Source of the DNA: Vulcanimicrobiota bacterium
GTDB taxonomy: Bacteria > Vulcanimicrobiota > Vulcanimicrobiia > Vulcanimicrobiales > Vulcanimicrobiaceae
Direction: 5' to 3'
DNA length: 64,000 nt
NCBI GenBank assembly: GCA_963714015.1
Contig: OY970223.1
Coordinates: 1,184,001 to 1,248,000 of the forward strand
A model generated the notes under the pieces. It had not been told where the DNA came from. It ran no database searches and saw nothing but the letters and a program-made list of their open reading frames with translations. Both the position numbers and the translations under genes were made by a program. This document shows, one piece after another, positions 44,895 through 61,142 of the stretch. Position 1 is the stretch's first letter; every line of letters starts with the position of its first letter.

Positions 44895-45177
44895 CTCCTC
44901 AATGTGTCATCGGAACCTGAACGGCATATTAACTGAGCCGGCTGCGAACGCATGCCGATTTCGCAATTTAAATCGACGTTCTACGGGCCGGCGGGGCGGC
45001 CCGTACAGGTCCTTCAACTTCAAACTGGGCGAAGAGCGTCTAATGGCTAACCGGATTGCGTTGTTCTGTTGCACATCGACACCATACGCACCGTGCCCTG
45101 ACGCGTTGGCGAGAGCTTGCCGAACGGCATAACGCGTGCTAACATTTCGACACACCGGCCTTGGTTAGGGGACGCTG

Positions 45178-45912
45178 ATGTCGCGATTCCTTTTTGCTCT
45201 AGCGTGTGCTTTGGGATTGGCGCTGACGGCATGCGGCGGGAGCTCTAACGGCACCGTGAGCCCGGGAACGAAGCCTTCAGGCAACGGTTCGGGAGGCTCG
45301 ACTGCGGCGTTTTTGAGCATCGCACCCACGAGCATTCCCTTTGTGCCTAGTCACCACGAACAGGCATCATTTACTGTATCGGGCGCAGTGCTGCCCGTTA
45401 CCGTCAACGTTTCAAACCCCGATCTATTCGACCTCAGCGCTCCTAGTCAAAACGGGGCATCACTCACTTACACCGTTACGATTGTGGCAGGTTCGCAGGC
45501 TCCAGCTACCATTTCCCTCCGGGATTCGTCCGGAGCGAAGGGAACCGTGAGCGTCATCACGCCGGACTGTCCGATTCCTCCGCCGAATATTTTCGAAGCT
45601 TTTCCCCCAAATCAGTCAACCGGACAAAACCCAACCTCGATTTATTTCGCCGTTAATAACGCCTATTCGCAAGAATTTGCGCCAGGGCTTACGTTGCGAA
45701 TGTTCGATGGAAACGGTAATGTTTCGTATGGGTCCACATTGATGCCCGCTGCTTCATTGCCGAAAGGCTCCGCAAGTCCGCCGCCGGGATATTCTATCTA
45801 TTTCAGCGCCGCCGCGCCGGCGCTCACTCCTTCAACGACATACTACGCGCAGGTCATAAGCAAAGCTTACCCATGTCTGGATCCAATGGTTACCGCAACG
45901 TTCTCTACGTGA
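45178..45912 (+). CDS. Ser/Pro/Thr-rich lipoprotein, unknown function
   Basis: Lipobox LTAC-GG; beta-rich Ig-like pattern. Confidence 0.75.
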   Translation: MSRFLFALACALGLALTACGGSSNGTVSPGTKPSGNGSGGSTAAFLSIAPTSIPFVPSHHEQASFTVSGAVLPVTVNVSNPDLFDLSAPSQNGASLTYTVTIVAGSQAPATISLRDSSGAKGTVSVITPDCPIPPPNIFEAFPPNQSTGQNPTSIYFAVNNAYSQEFAPGLTLRMFDGNGNVSYGSTLMPAASLPKGSASPPPGYSIYFSAAAPALTPSTTYYAQVISKAYPCLDPMVTATFST

Positions 45913-56561: not shown

Positions 56562-57298
56562 AGCGGCGGCTCTTTTTGGCGAGCAGCCTTTCGGCCGCGC
56601 TCGCTTCTTGTTCGCAGATCGGCACCAAATTGAATGACAACGGCGGTTTTCATCGCGCGCTCGAGAGTGCCGAATGGGTCAATCAGCGGCTCATCGGCAC
56701 GCGCGGCCGCGCGCGCGAATACGGGCCGGCGGACATCTCCAAGGATTTTCCGATAAACTCACTTCCCACGCCGAAAGATTCTCAATACTCGGATTTGGCT
56801 CGCGACGGATTCCATTCGTTCCGTTTAGTCGTGGATGGTGCCGTAGAGCATCCGCTTTCGCTGCCGCTTGCGCAGCTTCAGCACATGATGGACGTTTCGG
56901 AGATCACGCGTCACGACTGCGTCGAAGGCTGGAGCGTCGTCGCGCAGTGGCAAGGGGTGCGACTGGCAGACCTGATCGCGCTCGCTCGGCCGCGCCCGAA
57001 CGCGCGTTTTGCGGTCTTCCACACCTTCGACGTCGATCAGCAAGGCGCGCCGTACTATGAAAGCCTCAGTTTAACGCAGGCCGCGCATCCGCAGACGCTC
57101 CTGTCGCTGCGCCAAAACGGCAAGCCGATCGAGGTCGATCGCGGCGCGCCGGTCCGTTTGACGGTACCGACGCAGCTAGGCTACAAGAGCGCGAAATGGG
57201 TCAGGCGTATCGAGATCGCCGATTCGATGCACGCTCTGTACGGCGGCAAGGGCGGCTATTGGGAAGATCAGGGCTACGAGTGGTACGCGGGGATTTGA
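56558..57298 (+). CDS. Molybdopterin-dependent oxidoreductase (sulfite oxidase/MsrP-like)
   Basis: Tat-like KRRLFL, RHDCVEGWS, GAPVRL, GYKSAKW. Confidence 0.9.
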   Translation: MKRRLFLASSLSAALASCSQIGTKLNDNGGFHRALESAEWVNQRLIGTRGRAREYGPADISKDFPINSLPTPKDSQYSDLARDGFHSFRLVVDGAVEHPLSLPLAQLQHMMDVSEITRHDCVEGWSVVAQWQGVRLADLIALARPRPNARFAVFHTFDVDQQGAPYYESLSLTQAAHPQTLLSLRQNGKPIEVDRGAPVRLTVPTQLGYKSAKWVRRIEIADSMHALYGGKGGYWEDQGYEWYAGI

Positions 57299-57324
57299 CG
57301 TGCAGTCTCAGCTGCCGCTACAGC

Positions 57325-58215
57325 CTACGACCGTAACGATCTCGGCTTGCTCAATGCAATCCATACGCCCGCGATAACCAGTGCCGCGCCGAAGGTTTCA
57401 CGCAAACCGAACGCTTCGCCGCCCGCAAAGACTCCCACGAGGACCGCGATCACCGGAATGATCAATGCGCTTAGGCCGACGATCCACGCGGCGATGCGAT
57501 GCAGCAGCCACAAATTTGCGAAGAACGCCACGCCGCTTCCGAGCACGGCCAAGTAAAGAATGGCGCCGGCGGACGCCACCGAAGCGGCGCGTGCCGGATT
57601 TGGGTGTTCGATGAGAATGCCGGCGATCGCCACCGCAGTTCCCGCAAGCAGCATGGCCGGCGGAAGCGTTACCAGCGGGTCGTGATGGGAATGCCGTTTG
57701 GCGTAGACGTTTGCGAAGGCCGAAGAACAAGCCGCCGCCACGGCTGCCAGCGCGTACCAGATGGATCCCTGCAGTGAGGCGGAGAGCGAGATTGCAAAGA
57801 CGCCGGTAAAGGCGAGCAATCCGCCTATCCAAATCCTCGGCGTAGTACGTTCGCCAATCAGATAATGACCGAACGCGAACATGAAGAAGGGCAACACGCC
57901 GAAGAGCACGGCCGTCAAACCGGACCCGACATGAGTCTCGGCGACATACGTGAGTATGTAATTCAACCCGAAAAGAAAGCAGCCCAGAATCGCGACCAGC
58001 TTCCACGGTACGTCTTTCGGCGCGCGAAGCTTTCCGCTCATTGCGGCCGCAGCGTACATAAGGAGTCCGGCGATCACGAAACGCACTCCCGCGCCGGAGA
58101 TTGGCGGAACGTAACGCAGGCTGATCTTGATGCCCAGCCAGGTAGTGCCCCAAATGCCGCACATAAGCGCATAGGCTCCAACGATCCCGGCTCGGGCCTT
58201 CAGGGAGTCGCGCAT
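57325..58215 (-). CDS. EamA/DMT transporter
   Basis: IWGTTW; about 10 TMs in two repeats. Confidence 0.9.
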   Translation of the reverse strand: MRDSLKARAGIVGAYALMCGIWGTTWLGIKISLRYVPPISGAGVRFVIAGLLMYAAAAMSGKLRAPKDVPWKLVAILGCFLFGLNYILTYVAETHVGSGLTAVLFGVLPFFMFAFGHYLIGERTTPRIWIGGLLAFTGVFAISLSASLQGSIWYALAAVAAACSSAFANVYAKRHSHHDPLVTLPPAMLLAGTAVAIAGILIEHPNPARAASVASAGAILYLAVLGSGVAFFANLWLLHRIAAWIVGLSALIIPVIAVLVGVFAGGEAFGLRETFGAALVIAGVWIALSKPRSLRS

Positions 58216-58232
58216 CGGATTCCTTATTAGCC

Positions 58233-58262
58233 TTGACAGTCCCGCCGGGCCTGTGCTTTGAT
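58233..58262 (+). promoter_or_regulatory. Promoter of the leader-aroH-tyrA operon
   Basis: TTGACA-N18-TTTGAT with an extended -10 TG; predicted start just before the leader ATG. Confidence 0.6.
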
Positions 58263-58271
58263 CGCCGGTAC

Positions 58272-58337
58272 ATGCACGGCGTACTTTCGCAGTCGTATTC
58301 GTATGCCTATTACCGGCCGCTTCGCGGAGCCGGTTGA
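58272..58337 (+). CDS. Tyr-rich attenuator leader peptide MHGVLSQSYSYAYYRPLRGAG
   Basis: 4 Tyr codons within codons 9-14; upstream of tyrosine biosynthesis genes and of a terminator. Confidence 0.85.
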   Translation: MHGVLSQSYSYAYYRPLRGAG

Positions 58338-58372
58338 GCGCTCATTGCAGTAACGGCTTACGTTTTTGCAAG

Positions 58373-58407
58373 AAGCCTCGCCGGTTCCGGCGGGGTTTTT
58401 TCGTTTT
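58373..58407 (+). terminator. Attenuator terminator
   Basis: AAGCCTCGCCG-gttc-CGGCGGGGTTT followed by a U-tract. Confidence 0.88.
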
Positions 58408-58420
58408 GAAGAGGGACTCG

Positions 58421-58804
58421 ATGAATCAACTCAAGGTGCGAGGCATTCGCGGTGCGGTCACCGTGGAGGAAAACGTGCCCGAACAGATCGGCGCCGCCAC
58501 GAAGCGGCTGCTCTCGGAAATGATCGGCCGCAACGCGATTGAGACCGCCGACATTGCCTCGGTGCTGTTCAGTCTGACTCCGGATCTGCAGTCCGCCTTT
58601 CCGGCGCTCGCGGCGCGCGAAATGGGTTGGGTTCACGTGCCGATGCTGCACTTCAGCGAGATCGCGGTACCGGGAGCTATGGCGCGCGTGGTGCGCGTAT
58701 TGATGCACGTGAACACCGTGCGCGGACAACAGGAGATCGAACACGTCTACCTTGACGGAGCGGCGGCCTTGCGCCCCGATCTCTCGCGGCCGGTTGGTTC
58801 GTGA
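58421..58804 (+). CDS. aroH: Chorismate mutase, AroH class
   Basis: VRGIRGA, FPALAAR, VRVLMH, VYLDGAAALRPDL. Confidence 0.95.
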   Translation: MNQLKVRGIRGAVTVEENVPEQIGAATKRLLSEMIGRNAIETADIASVLFSLTPDLQSAFPALAAREMGWVHVPMLHFSEIAVPGAMARVVRVLMHVNTVRGQQEIEHVYLDGAAALRPDLSRPVGS

Positions 58805-59577
58805 GCGTGACGGGCACCATTGGGATCCTCGGCACCGGGCTGATCGGCGGATCGATAGGGCTGCGCGCGCGTGAAATCGGCATGCGCGTTCTGGGCTGCG
58901 ATGCCGACGCGGAGGCGGCGCGTGAAGCGCGGCAGCGCGAAATCGTAGATCAGCTTGCGGACAGGAGCGAGATCTACGGGTCGTGCGATACAGTCGTGCT
59001 CGCCATGCCTGCTGCTGCGGCGGTACGCGAGTTGCAATCACTAGATCGCACTCAGGTTTCGCGCGTTTCGTTGATTATCGACGTCGCCTCGGTGAAAACG
59101 CCGGTTGTCGAAGCTGCGCGCGGAATCGCGTCCTTCGTTGCGACGCACCCGATGGCGGGAAATGCCGGAAGCGGCCCTCATGCCGCCGACGCTGCAATCT
59201 TTGACGGCGCGACGTGGGCATACGTTGCGCAGCAAGACGAAAAAGTGACGCAGCGGGCGGTGGAGTTCATTGCCTCGATGGGAGCGCACCCGGTGCCGGT
59301 TGACGCGCAGCAGCACGACGCAATCGTTGCCTTCACCTCTCACATGCCGCAGGTCTTCGCATGGCTCTTTGCCGAGCGGTTCACGCAACTGGACTCCGAA
59401 ATTGCCGAGGCGCTGTGCGGTCCCGTCGCGCGTGAATTGCTGCGCATAGGCCGCACGCGCCCGGCGTTCTGGAACGACGTGCTCGAGCTCAACGCGGAAA
59501 ACTTGAGCCGCGAGCTGCGCCGGGCGGCTGGAGCACTCGACGAAGCAGCGGCAGATTACATTCTGAAAACGCCGTAA
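58801..59577 (+). CDS. tyrA: Prephenate dehydrogenase
   Basis: [21 protein letters not shown]...AFTSHMP. Confidence 0.92.
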
Positions 59578-61142
59578 CGCGTATGTTCGATGGGTGCGTG
59601 CGCCGCTGCGTCCAGTCCCATCGCGATAACTTTGCGCGTGTCGAGGGGATCGATGATACCGTCGTCCCACAAGCGCGCGGTCGAGTAATACGGGCTTCCC
59701 TCGTGCTCGTACTTCTCGAGAATCGGACGTTCGAACTCGGCTTTTTGCTCCGCCGTCATCTCGCCTTTGACCGTTGAGAGCACGCCGGCGGCTTGCGGTC
59801 CGCCCATGACCGAGATGCGCGCGTTCGGCCACATCCACAATTGTCGCGGCGAATACGCGCGCCCGCACATGCCGTAATTCCCCGCGCCGAAGCTTCCGCC
59901 GATCACGACCGTGAATTTCGGGACCTCAGCGCAGGCCACGGCGGTGACGAGTTTGGCGCCGTCTTTGGCGATGCCGCCGTTCTCGTACTGCTTGCCGACC
60001 ATAAAGCCGGTGATGTTCTGCAGAAAGAGCAACGGCGTGCCGCGCTGGGTGCAAAGCTCGATGAAGTGCGCTCCCTTGAGCGCGCTCTCGCTGAACAGAA
60101 TCCCATTGTTCGCGATGACGCCGACGGGGTGTCCTTCGATGCGCGCAAAACCGGTCACGAGCGTCGTGCCGTAGCGCGCTTTGAATTCATGAAACTCCGA
60201 TGCGTCGACCAGACGCGCGATGACCTCGCGCACGTCGTACCCGATTCTGCTGTCGGCCGGGATGATGCCGTAAATGTCGCGCGGATCGTATTTCGGCGCT
60301 CGCGCCTCGCAGGAATCCCATTGCCGCGGAAGCTCGCGATGCAGGTTCGCAACAATGGATCGCACCAGGGCCAGCGCATGCTCGTCGTCTTCCGCGAAAT
60401 GATCGGCAACCCCGGATATCCGCGTGTGCACGTCGGCGCCGCCCAGTTCTTCGGCGGTGACTTCCTCGCCGGTCGCGGCCTTGACCAGCGGCGGACCGCC
60501 TAGGAAGATCGTTCCGTTACCCTTAACGATGATCGCCTCGTCGGACATGGCCGGAACGTACGCTCCTCCCGCCGTGCACGAACCCATAACGGCAGCGATC
60601 TGCGGGATTTTTTTACCCGACATGCGCGCCTGGTTGTAAAATATCCGTCCGAAGTGATCGCGATCGGGAAACACCTCAGCCTGCAGCGGCAAAAACGCAC
60701 CGCCCGAATCCACCAAATAGATGCACGGCAAATGGTTTTGCTCCGCAATCTCTTGCGCGCGAAGGTGTTTCTTTACCGTCATCGGGTAGTATGTGCCGCC
60801 TTTGACCGTTGCATCGTTTGCAACGATGATGCAGTGCTGGCCTTCGATTGCGCCGATCCCGGTAATCATGCCGGCGGCGGGCGCATCGTCACGGTACATC
60901 CCGTTGGCTGCAAGGGCGGAGAGCTCCAGGAAATCCGAAGCGGGATCCACGAGCCGATCGATGCGTTCGCGCGCGGTGAGCTTGCCTCGCTTGCGGTGCT
61001 TGGCAACCGCGTCGGGTCCGCCCCCGTTGCGGACTGACGCCAAACGTTCGCGCAGGTCCGCGACGAGGCGGTTCATGCGCTCGAAGTTTCGATCGAAATC
61101 GCCGTCTTGCGGGTTCAGGCGTGTCGGTAGAACGGAAATCAC
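59556..61142 (-). CDS. Methylcrotonyl-CoA carboxylase beta (carboxyltransferase)
   Basis: [34 protein letters not shown]. Confidence 0.94.

Follow-up and report, generated by a model that had tools for sequence, protein, structure and literature searches.

The window analyzed here is a stretch of 64,000 nucleotides from a Vulcanimicrobiota bacterium (contig OY970223.1, positions 1,184,001–1,248,000), and the element under study occupies a 206-nt spacer (58216–58420) between a divergent transporter gene and aroH. The aroH gene encodes a monofunctional chorismate mutase and is followed by a tyrA-like prephenate dehydrogenase gene, the start of which overlaps the aroH stop by 4 nt. The gene after tyrA is convergent. 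The initial annotation had placed aroH-tyrA downstream of a tyrosine-sensing leader, and the identity of both genes is borne out by matches to PF07736 and TIGR01796 and to PF02153 and PF20463, respectively; the NCBIfam prephenate dehydrogenase models match the tyrA-like product (58801–59577) only below their cut-offs. aroH-tyrA is a two-gene tyrosine-branch operon. The spacer contains a promoter-like sequence, a short open reading frame (ORF) rich in Tyr codons, and RNA segments with alternative pairings. Taken together, these very likely form a ribosome-mediated, tyrosine-specific leader-peptide attenuator that senses charged tRNA-Tyr and controls aroH-tyrA.

Translation of 58272–58337 reveals the 21-residue peptide reported in the initial annotation, with tyrosine at codons 9, 11, 13, and 14. 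Both strands of the 3.56-Mb genome were searched for every ATG ORF of 10–40 codons (n = 29,136). At least four Tyr codons within six occur in a single small ORF, which is this leader, and at least three within six occur in 19. Tyrosine makes up 2.4% of the residues in the long ORFs of the genome. The Tyr cluster being found once in 29,136 ORFs, the composition of the leader is not due to chance, and a short ORF rich in codons for the end product of the pathway stands before aroH-tyrA. Three of the four Tyr codons are TAT, compared with 35% TAT genome-wide, but the codons are too few for this preference to carry meaning.

The 1:2, 2:3, and 3:4 structures of a classical attenuator had also been proposed, and folding finds all three where they had been placed (Table 1). 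The antiterminator pairs 58325–58342 with 58374–58389 over 16 bp and, together with the central hairpin inside it, reaches −39.9 kcal/mol. The terminator with its A/U extension amounts to −19.8 kcal/mol, and an inverted-repeat search returned 58370–58384 paired with 58387–58401. Antiterminator and terminator are mutually exclusive. An intrinsic terminator therefore lies between the leader ORF and aroH, although a simple scanner omits it. The gene on the 5' side of the spacer (57325–58215, minus strand) is divergent, which rules out that the hairpin and T run are the end-of-gene terminator of an upstream gene. The fold of the whole leader has a z-score of −3.25, and none of 200 shuffled sequences folded as well.

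Table 1. Features of the aroH-tyrA leader region and its flanking genes, in window coordinates.
Feature	Position	Strand	Details
EamA-family transporter gene, divergent	57325..58215	-	PF00892 E 1.2e-32
−35 element TTGACA	58233..58238	+	read from the sequence; TTGAC at the equivalent place in 50/50 relatives' regions
TG-n and −10-like hexamer (TGC TTTGAT)	58254..58262	+	18 nt after the −35 element, 9 nt before the ATG
Leader ORF, 21 codons and TGA, MHGVLSQSYSYAYYRPLRGAG	58272..58337	+	translation; no Shine-Dalgarno (SD) sequence, probably leaderless
Putative regulatory Tyr codons: Tyr9 TAT 58296, Tyr11 TAT 58302, Tyr13 TAT 58308, Tyr14 TAC 58311	58296..58313	+	
1:2 hairpin (anti-antiterminator), CCGGCCGC / GCGGAGCCGG	58312..58334	+	−12.2 kcal/mol; forms in the truncated transcript
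Segment 2, antiterminator 5' strand; includes the leader stop 58335–58337	58325..58342	+	folding
Central hairpin inside the antiterminator	58345..58371	+	folding
Segment 3, antiterminator 3' strand, overlapping the terminator 5' strand	58374..58389	+	folding
Intrinsic terminator: 8-bp GC-rich stem 58376–58383/58388–58395, GUUC loop, T6 at 58396–58401	58376..58401	+	
aroH ribosome-binding site GAGGGA, 4-nt spacer, ATG at 58421	58411..58423	+	read from the sequence
aroH, monofunctional chorismate mutase (AroH type, type I)	58421..58804	+	PF07736 E 4.3e-45; TIGR01796 E 1.8e-40
tyrA-like prephenate dehydrogenase	58801..59577	+	PF02153 E 2.3e-22; PF20463 E 4.8e-8

The effect of a ribosome on the leader was modeled by holding the RNA unpaired from its 5' end as far as 10 nt past the A-site codon, and the probability of the terminator helix was calculated. 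For the window, this probability is 0.00 with no ribosome, 0.00 for stalls at Tyr9, Tyr11, Tyr13, Tyr14, and Arg15, 0.01 at Pro16, and 0.86–0.99 from Leu17 to the stop codon. The leader of a same-genus relative, G001, gives 0.87 with no ribosome, 0.03–0.05 for stalls at Tyr11 and Tyr12, and 0.87 at the stop. In G013, which belongs to another genus, the values are 1.00 with no ribosome, 0.00 for stalls at Phe7, Phe8, and Tyr9, and 1.00 at the stop. Within this footprint-dependent model, a stall frees segment 2, and a ribosome that does not stall covers it. The direction of the switch claimed at the outset, with a stall on the Tyr codons leading to antitermination and arrival at the stop leading to termination, is retained, but its site is narrowed to Tyr13 and Tyr14 or just after. 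With the ribosome stalled at Tyr14, 6 nt remain unpaired, and a clear gap before the U tract is seen only there and for nearby stalls. The gap being confined to late stalls, the last two Tyr codons, Tyr13 and Tyr14, are probably the effective regulatory codons for the ribosome footprint assumed.

Conservation was assessed among relatives from the Eremiobacterota (Candidatus Baltobacteraceae, Eremiobacteraeota, and Vulcanimicrobiota). The tallies over 61 genomes here and over 151 genomes below include the unpublished genomes G010, G030, G059, G067, G077, G144, and G165, and no specific claim rests on these alone. Among 61 sampled genomes including that of the window, 44 contain aroH, and 30 loci were inspected. 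A leader and terminator precede aroH in three of the 30, namely the genome of the window, G001 (MHASSSYSSAYYRPHVRTAGSSLR), and G013 (MRTIASFFYAHYFSTARRGALRA). At most of the other sampled loci, aroH follows without a gap on a gene for DAHP synthase, EPSP synthase, or a pseudouridine synthase.

An aromatic-rich leader ORF and a terminator stand before aroH in 27 of the 80 loci from a named collection: 11 are of type MWTLGSYGYSFYYCRLRGR, 9 are of type MWRCYLSFCYRHTRSW, 6 are singles, and 1 is identical to that of G001. Nineteen of the other 53 loci were viewed by eye. In ten of these, the promoter immediately precedes a leaderless aroH; in two, a short in-frame ORF runs through the hairpin; and in seven, aroH comes directly after another gene. 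The remaining 34 were covered by an automated screen only (ATG ORFs with at least three aromatic residues in seven), so that weaker leaders there could be missed. Where the attenuator is lost (L079, L087, L088, L090, L092, L093, L094, L098, L099, and L032), the promoter lies ~7 nt before the ATG or GTG of aroH, and the leaderless aroH of these relatives begins MFFRGIRGA. In L084 and L095, the hairpin is retained, and the leaderless ATG continues in frame through it into aroH.

An alignment of 29 leaders was built with MAFFT without structural information. In the terminator helix, a standard pair is present in 96.8% of 403 cells, compared with 43–51% when the partners are slid, and in the antiterminator the figures are 92.0% of 437 cells and 32–46%, the structures tested having been drawn from one aligned member. 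Four terminator pairs change on both sides, giving a covariation score that none of 500 shuffles reached. Judged from these alignments, both helices are clearly maintained, mostly through conservation and G-U wobble. The leader ORF, the placement of its ATG relative to the promoter, the Tyr codons, and the stop codon inside segment 2 are all conserved across genera, and the check for a conserved Tyr-rich ORF and stems that had been suggested for this locus is thereby positive. In the type-A relatives, positions 7, 9, 12, and 13 are Tyr in 11/11, with both TAC and TAT used at each, and positions 8, 10, 11, and 14 vary (G/E/V, S/A/W, F/C/V/S, and C/R/F/Y, respectively). Synonymous changes at fixed Tyr positions, while the intervening codons drift, suggest that the Tyr codons are a selected feature.

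The promoter was compared over 50 distinct regions upstream of attenuator leaders in relatives. The spacer between the −35 element and the hexamer is 17–18 nt in 47/50, a TG stands one base before the hexamer in 40/50, and the distance from the end of the hexamer to the leader ATG is 6–12 nt in 48/50. None of the 50 has an SD-like 4-mer (GGAG, GAGG, or AGGA) at −18 to −3. The hexamers of the relatives (TTGCAT, TTTGAT, TTCTAT, and others) usually contain T rather than A at position 2. The conserved promoter geometry and the lack of an SD sequence indicate that the transcript carrying the leader ORF is probably leaderless, or almost, with the transcription start inferred from this geometry; the initial suggestion, made from a single locus, that the leader may be leaderless is supported by the promoter geometry of these 50 sequences.

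In the mechanism that we propose, transcription would begin at the ATG at 58272 or 1–2 nt before it, and the leader would be read from a leaderless mRNA. With ample Tyr-tRNA, the ribosome would reach codon 17 or the stop and mask segment 2 (58325–58342). Pairing of segments 3 and 4 would then become possible, the terminator (58376–58395 and U6) would form, and transcription would end at ~58400. With scarce Tyr-tRNA, the ribosome would stall at Tyr13 or Tyr14, masking segment 1 and the bases to ~58323. Segment 2 would pair with segment 3, GCGGGG (58390–58395) would be left single-stranded, and the polymerase would enter aroH-tyrA.

Several observations weigh against this interpretation. The minimum free energy structure of the untranslated RNA is one long hairpin, 58319–58395, at −56.3 kcal/mol compared with −48.4 kcal/mol for the combination of 1:2 and 3:4. 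Since it ends at the U tract, the long hairpin may itself terminate. A consensus promoter and terminator scan of the locus listed neither a promoter nor a terminator in two runs. TTTGAT, without A at position 2, is a non-canonical −10 hexamer, which probably explains why no promoter was called; we suspect that the terminator was missed because its maximal stem leaves a 2-nt loop, where the scanner accepts 3–8 nt. The congener G002 has the same promoter directly before aroH with no leader, so the element is dispensable, and the closest clade comprises three sequences only. Covariation in the antiterminator is weak, with three pairs changing on both sides, a number that 303 of 500 shuffles also reached, and its 5' strand overlaps the leader ORF. 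Drawing the tested structures from one aligned member also favors them over the slid controls.

The folding model and the codon content raise further difficulties of the same kind. For stalls at Tyr9, Tyr11, and Tyr13, the modeled stem comes within 1–2 nt of the U tract, and the clear gap seen for Tyr14 and nearby stalls hinges on taking the footprint to extend +10 nt past the A-site codon. In 26 more distant relatives, full-leader equilibrium folding retains the terminator in most stall states, with probabilities mostly of 0.8–0.99. The terminators of these relatives, at −23 to −37 kcal/mol, are so stable that they persist at equilibrium. Switching there must therefore be kinetic, as in classical attenuators; in transcripts that end before segment 4, segment 3 is paired with a probability of ~0.7–0.8 when the ribosome is stalled and ~0.2–0.5 when it is at the stop. 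The leader before pheA, the prephenate dehydratase gene, in G001 (YFFAYYYF) contains four Tyr codons, and Tyr codons are many in the pheA leaders of relatives, so that codon content is no clean marker of specificity across the family.

Some of these points bear on other explanations of the locus. The attenuator might report general translation capacity or another amino acid, any slowing late in the ORF giving readthrough. Stalls at Arg15 or Pro16 block the terminator in the mask model just as Tyr stalls do, Phe and Trp occur beside Tyr in the leaders of relatives, and the account of the Corynebacterium glutamicum aroR leader in the relevant part of PMC11802643 is that its Tyr codon confers no response to tyrosine. 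The Tyr cluster is nevertheless unique in the genome, the Tyr positions are kept through synonymous changes, and the operon belongs to the tyrosine branch in a genome where a Pfam search and tblastn found no prephenate dehydratase, which makes this explanation improbable. It is also quite improbable, and slightly more so, that the RNA is a constitutive, factor-independent partial terminator or a stabilizing 5' hairpin in the aroH 5' untranslated region, with an untranslated ORF and Tyr codons that play no role. The minimum free energy hairpin at 58319–58395 does end at the U tract, the −10 element is non-canonical, and translation of the leader is a prediction from the sequence. Against this, the ORF, the placement of its ATG relative to the promoter, the Tyr codons, and the stop in segment 2 are kept across genera while adjacent codons drift, and an ORF of such composition is expected by chance at 1 in 29,136.

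The terminator and antiterminator pair alone does not tell what flips the switch, and a ligand or a trans-acting factor could bring about antitermination, as with a riboswitch, a T-box binding tRNA-Tyr, or an RNA-binding protein. In other phyla, T-boxes or protein regulators control tyrosine genes. The hallmarks of a T-box are a specifier loop and a T-box sequence that pairs with the tRNA acceptor end, and the amino acid leader families in Rfam comprise the Trp, Phe, His, Leu, and Thr leaders. An Rfam covariance scan of 57000–60000 with E values up to 10 found no leader, T-box, or riboswitch family; the two matches were to microRNA and small nucleolar RNA models, far below their cut-offs. Besides lacking a match to any Rfam family, T-boxes included, the RNA from the ATG to the terminator is ~130 nt and consists mostly of the ORF and three helices, and such a switch would leave the conserved ORF with its Tyr codons unexplained. 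We regard it as extremely unlikely. The tyrosine-specific leader-peptide attenuator is thus the reading we retain.

The composition of the leaders appears to follow the content of the operon, though this is not a clean rule. The aroH-tyrA leaders of the window genome and of G001 contain only Tyr among the aromatic codons. G013, in which aroH is followed by a prephenate dehydratase gene (PF00800, E 8e-38), has the leader FFYAHYF and is the sole case of this arrangement. Leaders before operons that begin with pheA mix Phe, Tyr, and Trp. The window genome contains aroH, tyrA, DAHP synthase, and trpE/trpG genes, and in it no match to PF00800 was found (14/14 control genomes were positive), nor a convincing tblastn hit with the prephenate dehydratases of two relatives (best E 0.39); the genome is a single contig but 89.6% complete, so the absence is not proven. 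With no prephenate dehydratase found, the chorismate mutase here would serve tyrosine only, in keeping with a leader that contains only Tyr. The missing enzyme suggests phenylalanine auxotrophy or an unrecognized route. Among relatives, prephenate dehydratase was not seen in G002 and G138 and is present in G001, G013, and G070.

A covariance model, R1, was built from the 29-leader alignment. It matches (E ≤ 0.01) in 93/151 family genomes and in 63/96 high-quality genomes, where not all matches are Tyr attenuators and some are bare terminators at model positions ~96–131. The first gene downstream of the best 30 R1 loci encodes prephenate dehydratase in 20, aroH in 4, and DAHP synthase in 1; the remaining 5 loci carry Leu-, Val-, and Ile-rich leaders. 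Further copies in G001 precede acetolactate synthase-like, cysteine synthase-like, and homoserine dehydrogenase-like genes, named from N-terminal translations only. A common chassis of promoter, antiterminator, and terminator is seen in L144–L146 (G001), L128, L129, L133, L137, and L139, with leaders rich in Leu/Val/Ile before the acetolactate synthase-like genes, Cys before the cysteine synthase-like genes, and Met/Cys/Ile/Thr before the homoserine dehydrogenase-like genes. From these comparisons, the element in the window probably belongs to a group of leaderless attenuators found across the lineage rather than being an isolated case, and such attenuators are probably widespread in the Eremiobacterota.

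In the window genome, R1 matches at E < 0.01 only at the present site. A second aromatic leader was found outside the window at 1960925–1961130 (leader at 1960970), MTLSAARYSYWWYVTALAVPVS, with the Tyr/Trp core YSYWWY. It consists of TTGACA, 17 nt, TATTGT, 7 nt, and an ATG ORF, followed by a GC-rich hairpin and a T run, and it sits between a trpG-like glutamine amidotransferase gene and a DAHP synthase gene (PF00793). Its ATG overlaps the TGA of the trpG-like gene as ATGA. A genome-wide screen for a small ORF followed by a terminator and a long ORF gave 71 ORF-by-residue candidates, of which only the present site and the DAHP synthase leader are convincing. The His-, Thr-, Leu-, and Val-rich candidates lack a promoter or gene context and were set aside, and the region before trpE in this genome yielded no leader rich in Trp. 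One further small ORF within the window (~45056–45230, plus strand; genome position 1229056) starts with TTG, encodes MRCSVAHRHHTHRALTRWRELAERHNAC with four His in six codons, and is followed by a hairpin and T run, 20 nt before a 234-residue lipoprotein-like ORF. It has no link to histidine genes and is probably a chance occurrence.

The start of aroH differs among the relatives. In 25 of 25 evaluable relatives (26 loci, L044–L103; for example L046:558–701 and L067:600–700), the stretch from the terminator loop to the conserved RGIRGA contains no ATG, GTG, or TTG for aroH. Their only in-frame aroH starts lie at most 14 nt from the leader stop and are preceded by GAGGGA in 15. At nine type-B loci, the aroH start overlaps the leader stop, and in L077 it lies inside the 3' strand of the terminator. 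With no aroH start after the terminator, the terminator and U tract are apparently translated as an N-terminal extension of AroH (...PADPAGVRVF-RGIRGA). A tentative, rather doubtful extension of these observations is that the Eremiobacterota (Baltobacteraceae) possess a modular chassis, in which the same leaderless promoter, an "R-P-x-G-R stop" antiterminator strand, and a GC-rich terminator are combined with codons swapped for Tyr, mixed Phe/Tyr/Trp, branched-chain, Cys, and homoserine-branch genes. This chassis would, in many relatives, be merged with aroH, AroH initiating in the antiterminator strand at or near the leader stop. If so, readthrough would be set by the ribosome that reads the leader, and the same ribosome could pass on to translating AroH across the terminator sequence.

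In the window itself, a TTG at 58334 overlaps the leader TGA as TTGA. It follows GGAG by 4 nt and shares the reading frame of aroH (ORF 58334–58804, 156 residues). This TTG is not conserved in G001 or G013. The ATG at 58421, preceded by GAGGGA at a distance of 4 nt, is the likelier start of aroH, and neither of the two closest relatives conserves the extension that a start at 58334 would add. The TTG may be a relic of the arrangement in relatives where aroH starts at the leader stop. The layout of the aroH ribosome-binding site and ATG is comparable in a same-genus relative.

The divergent neighbor (57325–58215) encodes an EamA/YedA-like exporter. The model for YddG, an aromatic amino acid exporter, matches weakly (E 1e-6, far below cut-off), and the pairing of the EamA gene with aroH is retained in G001 and G002. 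Export of aromatic amino acids by this neighbor is conceivable from these data.

The locus and its ~27 relatives offer a well conserved and directly testable example, with tyrosine, of textbook attenuation in the Eremiobacterota, a soil phylum known almost solely from metagenomes. Gene calling overlooks the leader ORFs; in relatives, it overlooks the true starts of aroH as well. The locus also bears on the metabolic reading of uncultured bacteria, given that prephenate dehydratase is apparently missing and chorismate mutase would serve tyrosine only, and on the diversification of attenuators by codon swaps on a fixed RNA scaffold.

Leader-peptide attenuation has been described for Trp, Phe, His, Leu, Thr, Ile/Val, and a few other amino acids. 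In the literature searched, which may miss older comparative genomics papers, we found neither a tyrosine-specific leader-peptide attenuator nor leaderless translation in the Eremiobacterota, and the description of the element as a little-documented Tyr attenuator holds within those bounds. The mechanism is of the trpL, pheL, and hisL type and is not new. What would be new is the amino acid specificity, the probably leaderless start, and the phylum.

The closest mechanistic parallels are pheL-pheA and trpL-trpEDCBA of Escherichia coli, which are described in PMC11802643. Attenuators of this classical kind likewise have a short ORF with clustered codons for the product, 1:2, 2:3, and 3:4 segments, an intrinsic terminator before the first structural gene, and a leader stop at or in segment 2. 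In contrast to these, the element described here has Tyr codons, no SD sequence, and an ATG 9 nt after a −10-like hexamer, and is probably leaderless; its antiterminator is far more stable than its terminator (−39.9 compared with −19.8 kcal/mol), it matches no Rfam leader family, and it occurs in the Eremiobacterota.

Other systems share single features with it. The aroR leader before aroF (DAHP synthase) in C. glutamicum contains Phe-Tyr-Phe and responds to Phe but not to Tyr, according to the section of PMC11802643 that cites Neshat et al. (2014). It is likewise an aromatic-pathway leader-peptide attenuator with a Tyr codon, whereas the present leader contains four Tyr codons but neither Phe nor Trp, and precedes the chorismate mutase/prephenate dehydrogenase branch. 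The uORFC-13-1 motif before aroF in Acholeplasma, as summarized in PMC8632094, was found by comparative genomics and also combines a conserved upstream ORF with a terminator. That motif has a ribosome-binding site and Phe codons, precedes DAHP synthase, and bears no sequence relation to the element in the window. Leaderless leader ORFs are reported for ilvBNC of C. glutamicum and trpL (rnTrpL) of Sinorhizobium meliloti in the portions of PMC11857589 and PMC6614838, respectively, that deal with them. In the ilvBNC and rnTrpL transcripts, the 5' end coincides with or adjoins the start codon of the leader, which makes an SD sequence unnecessary, as the promoter geometry suggests here. They sense branched-chain amino acids or Trp, and the element upstream of aroH-tyrA would sense Tyr.

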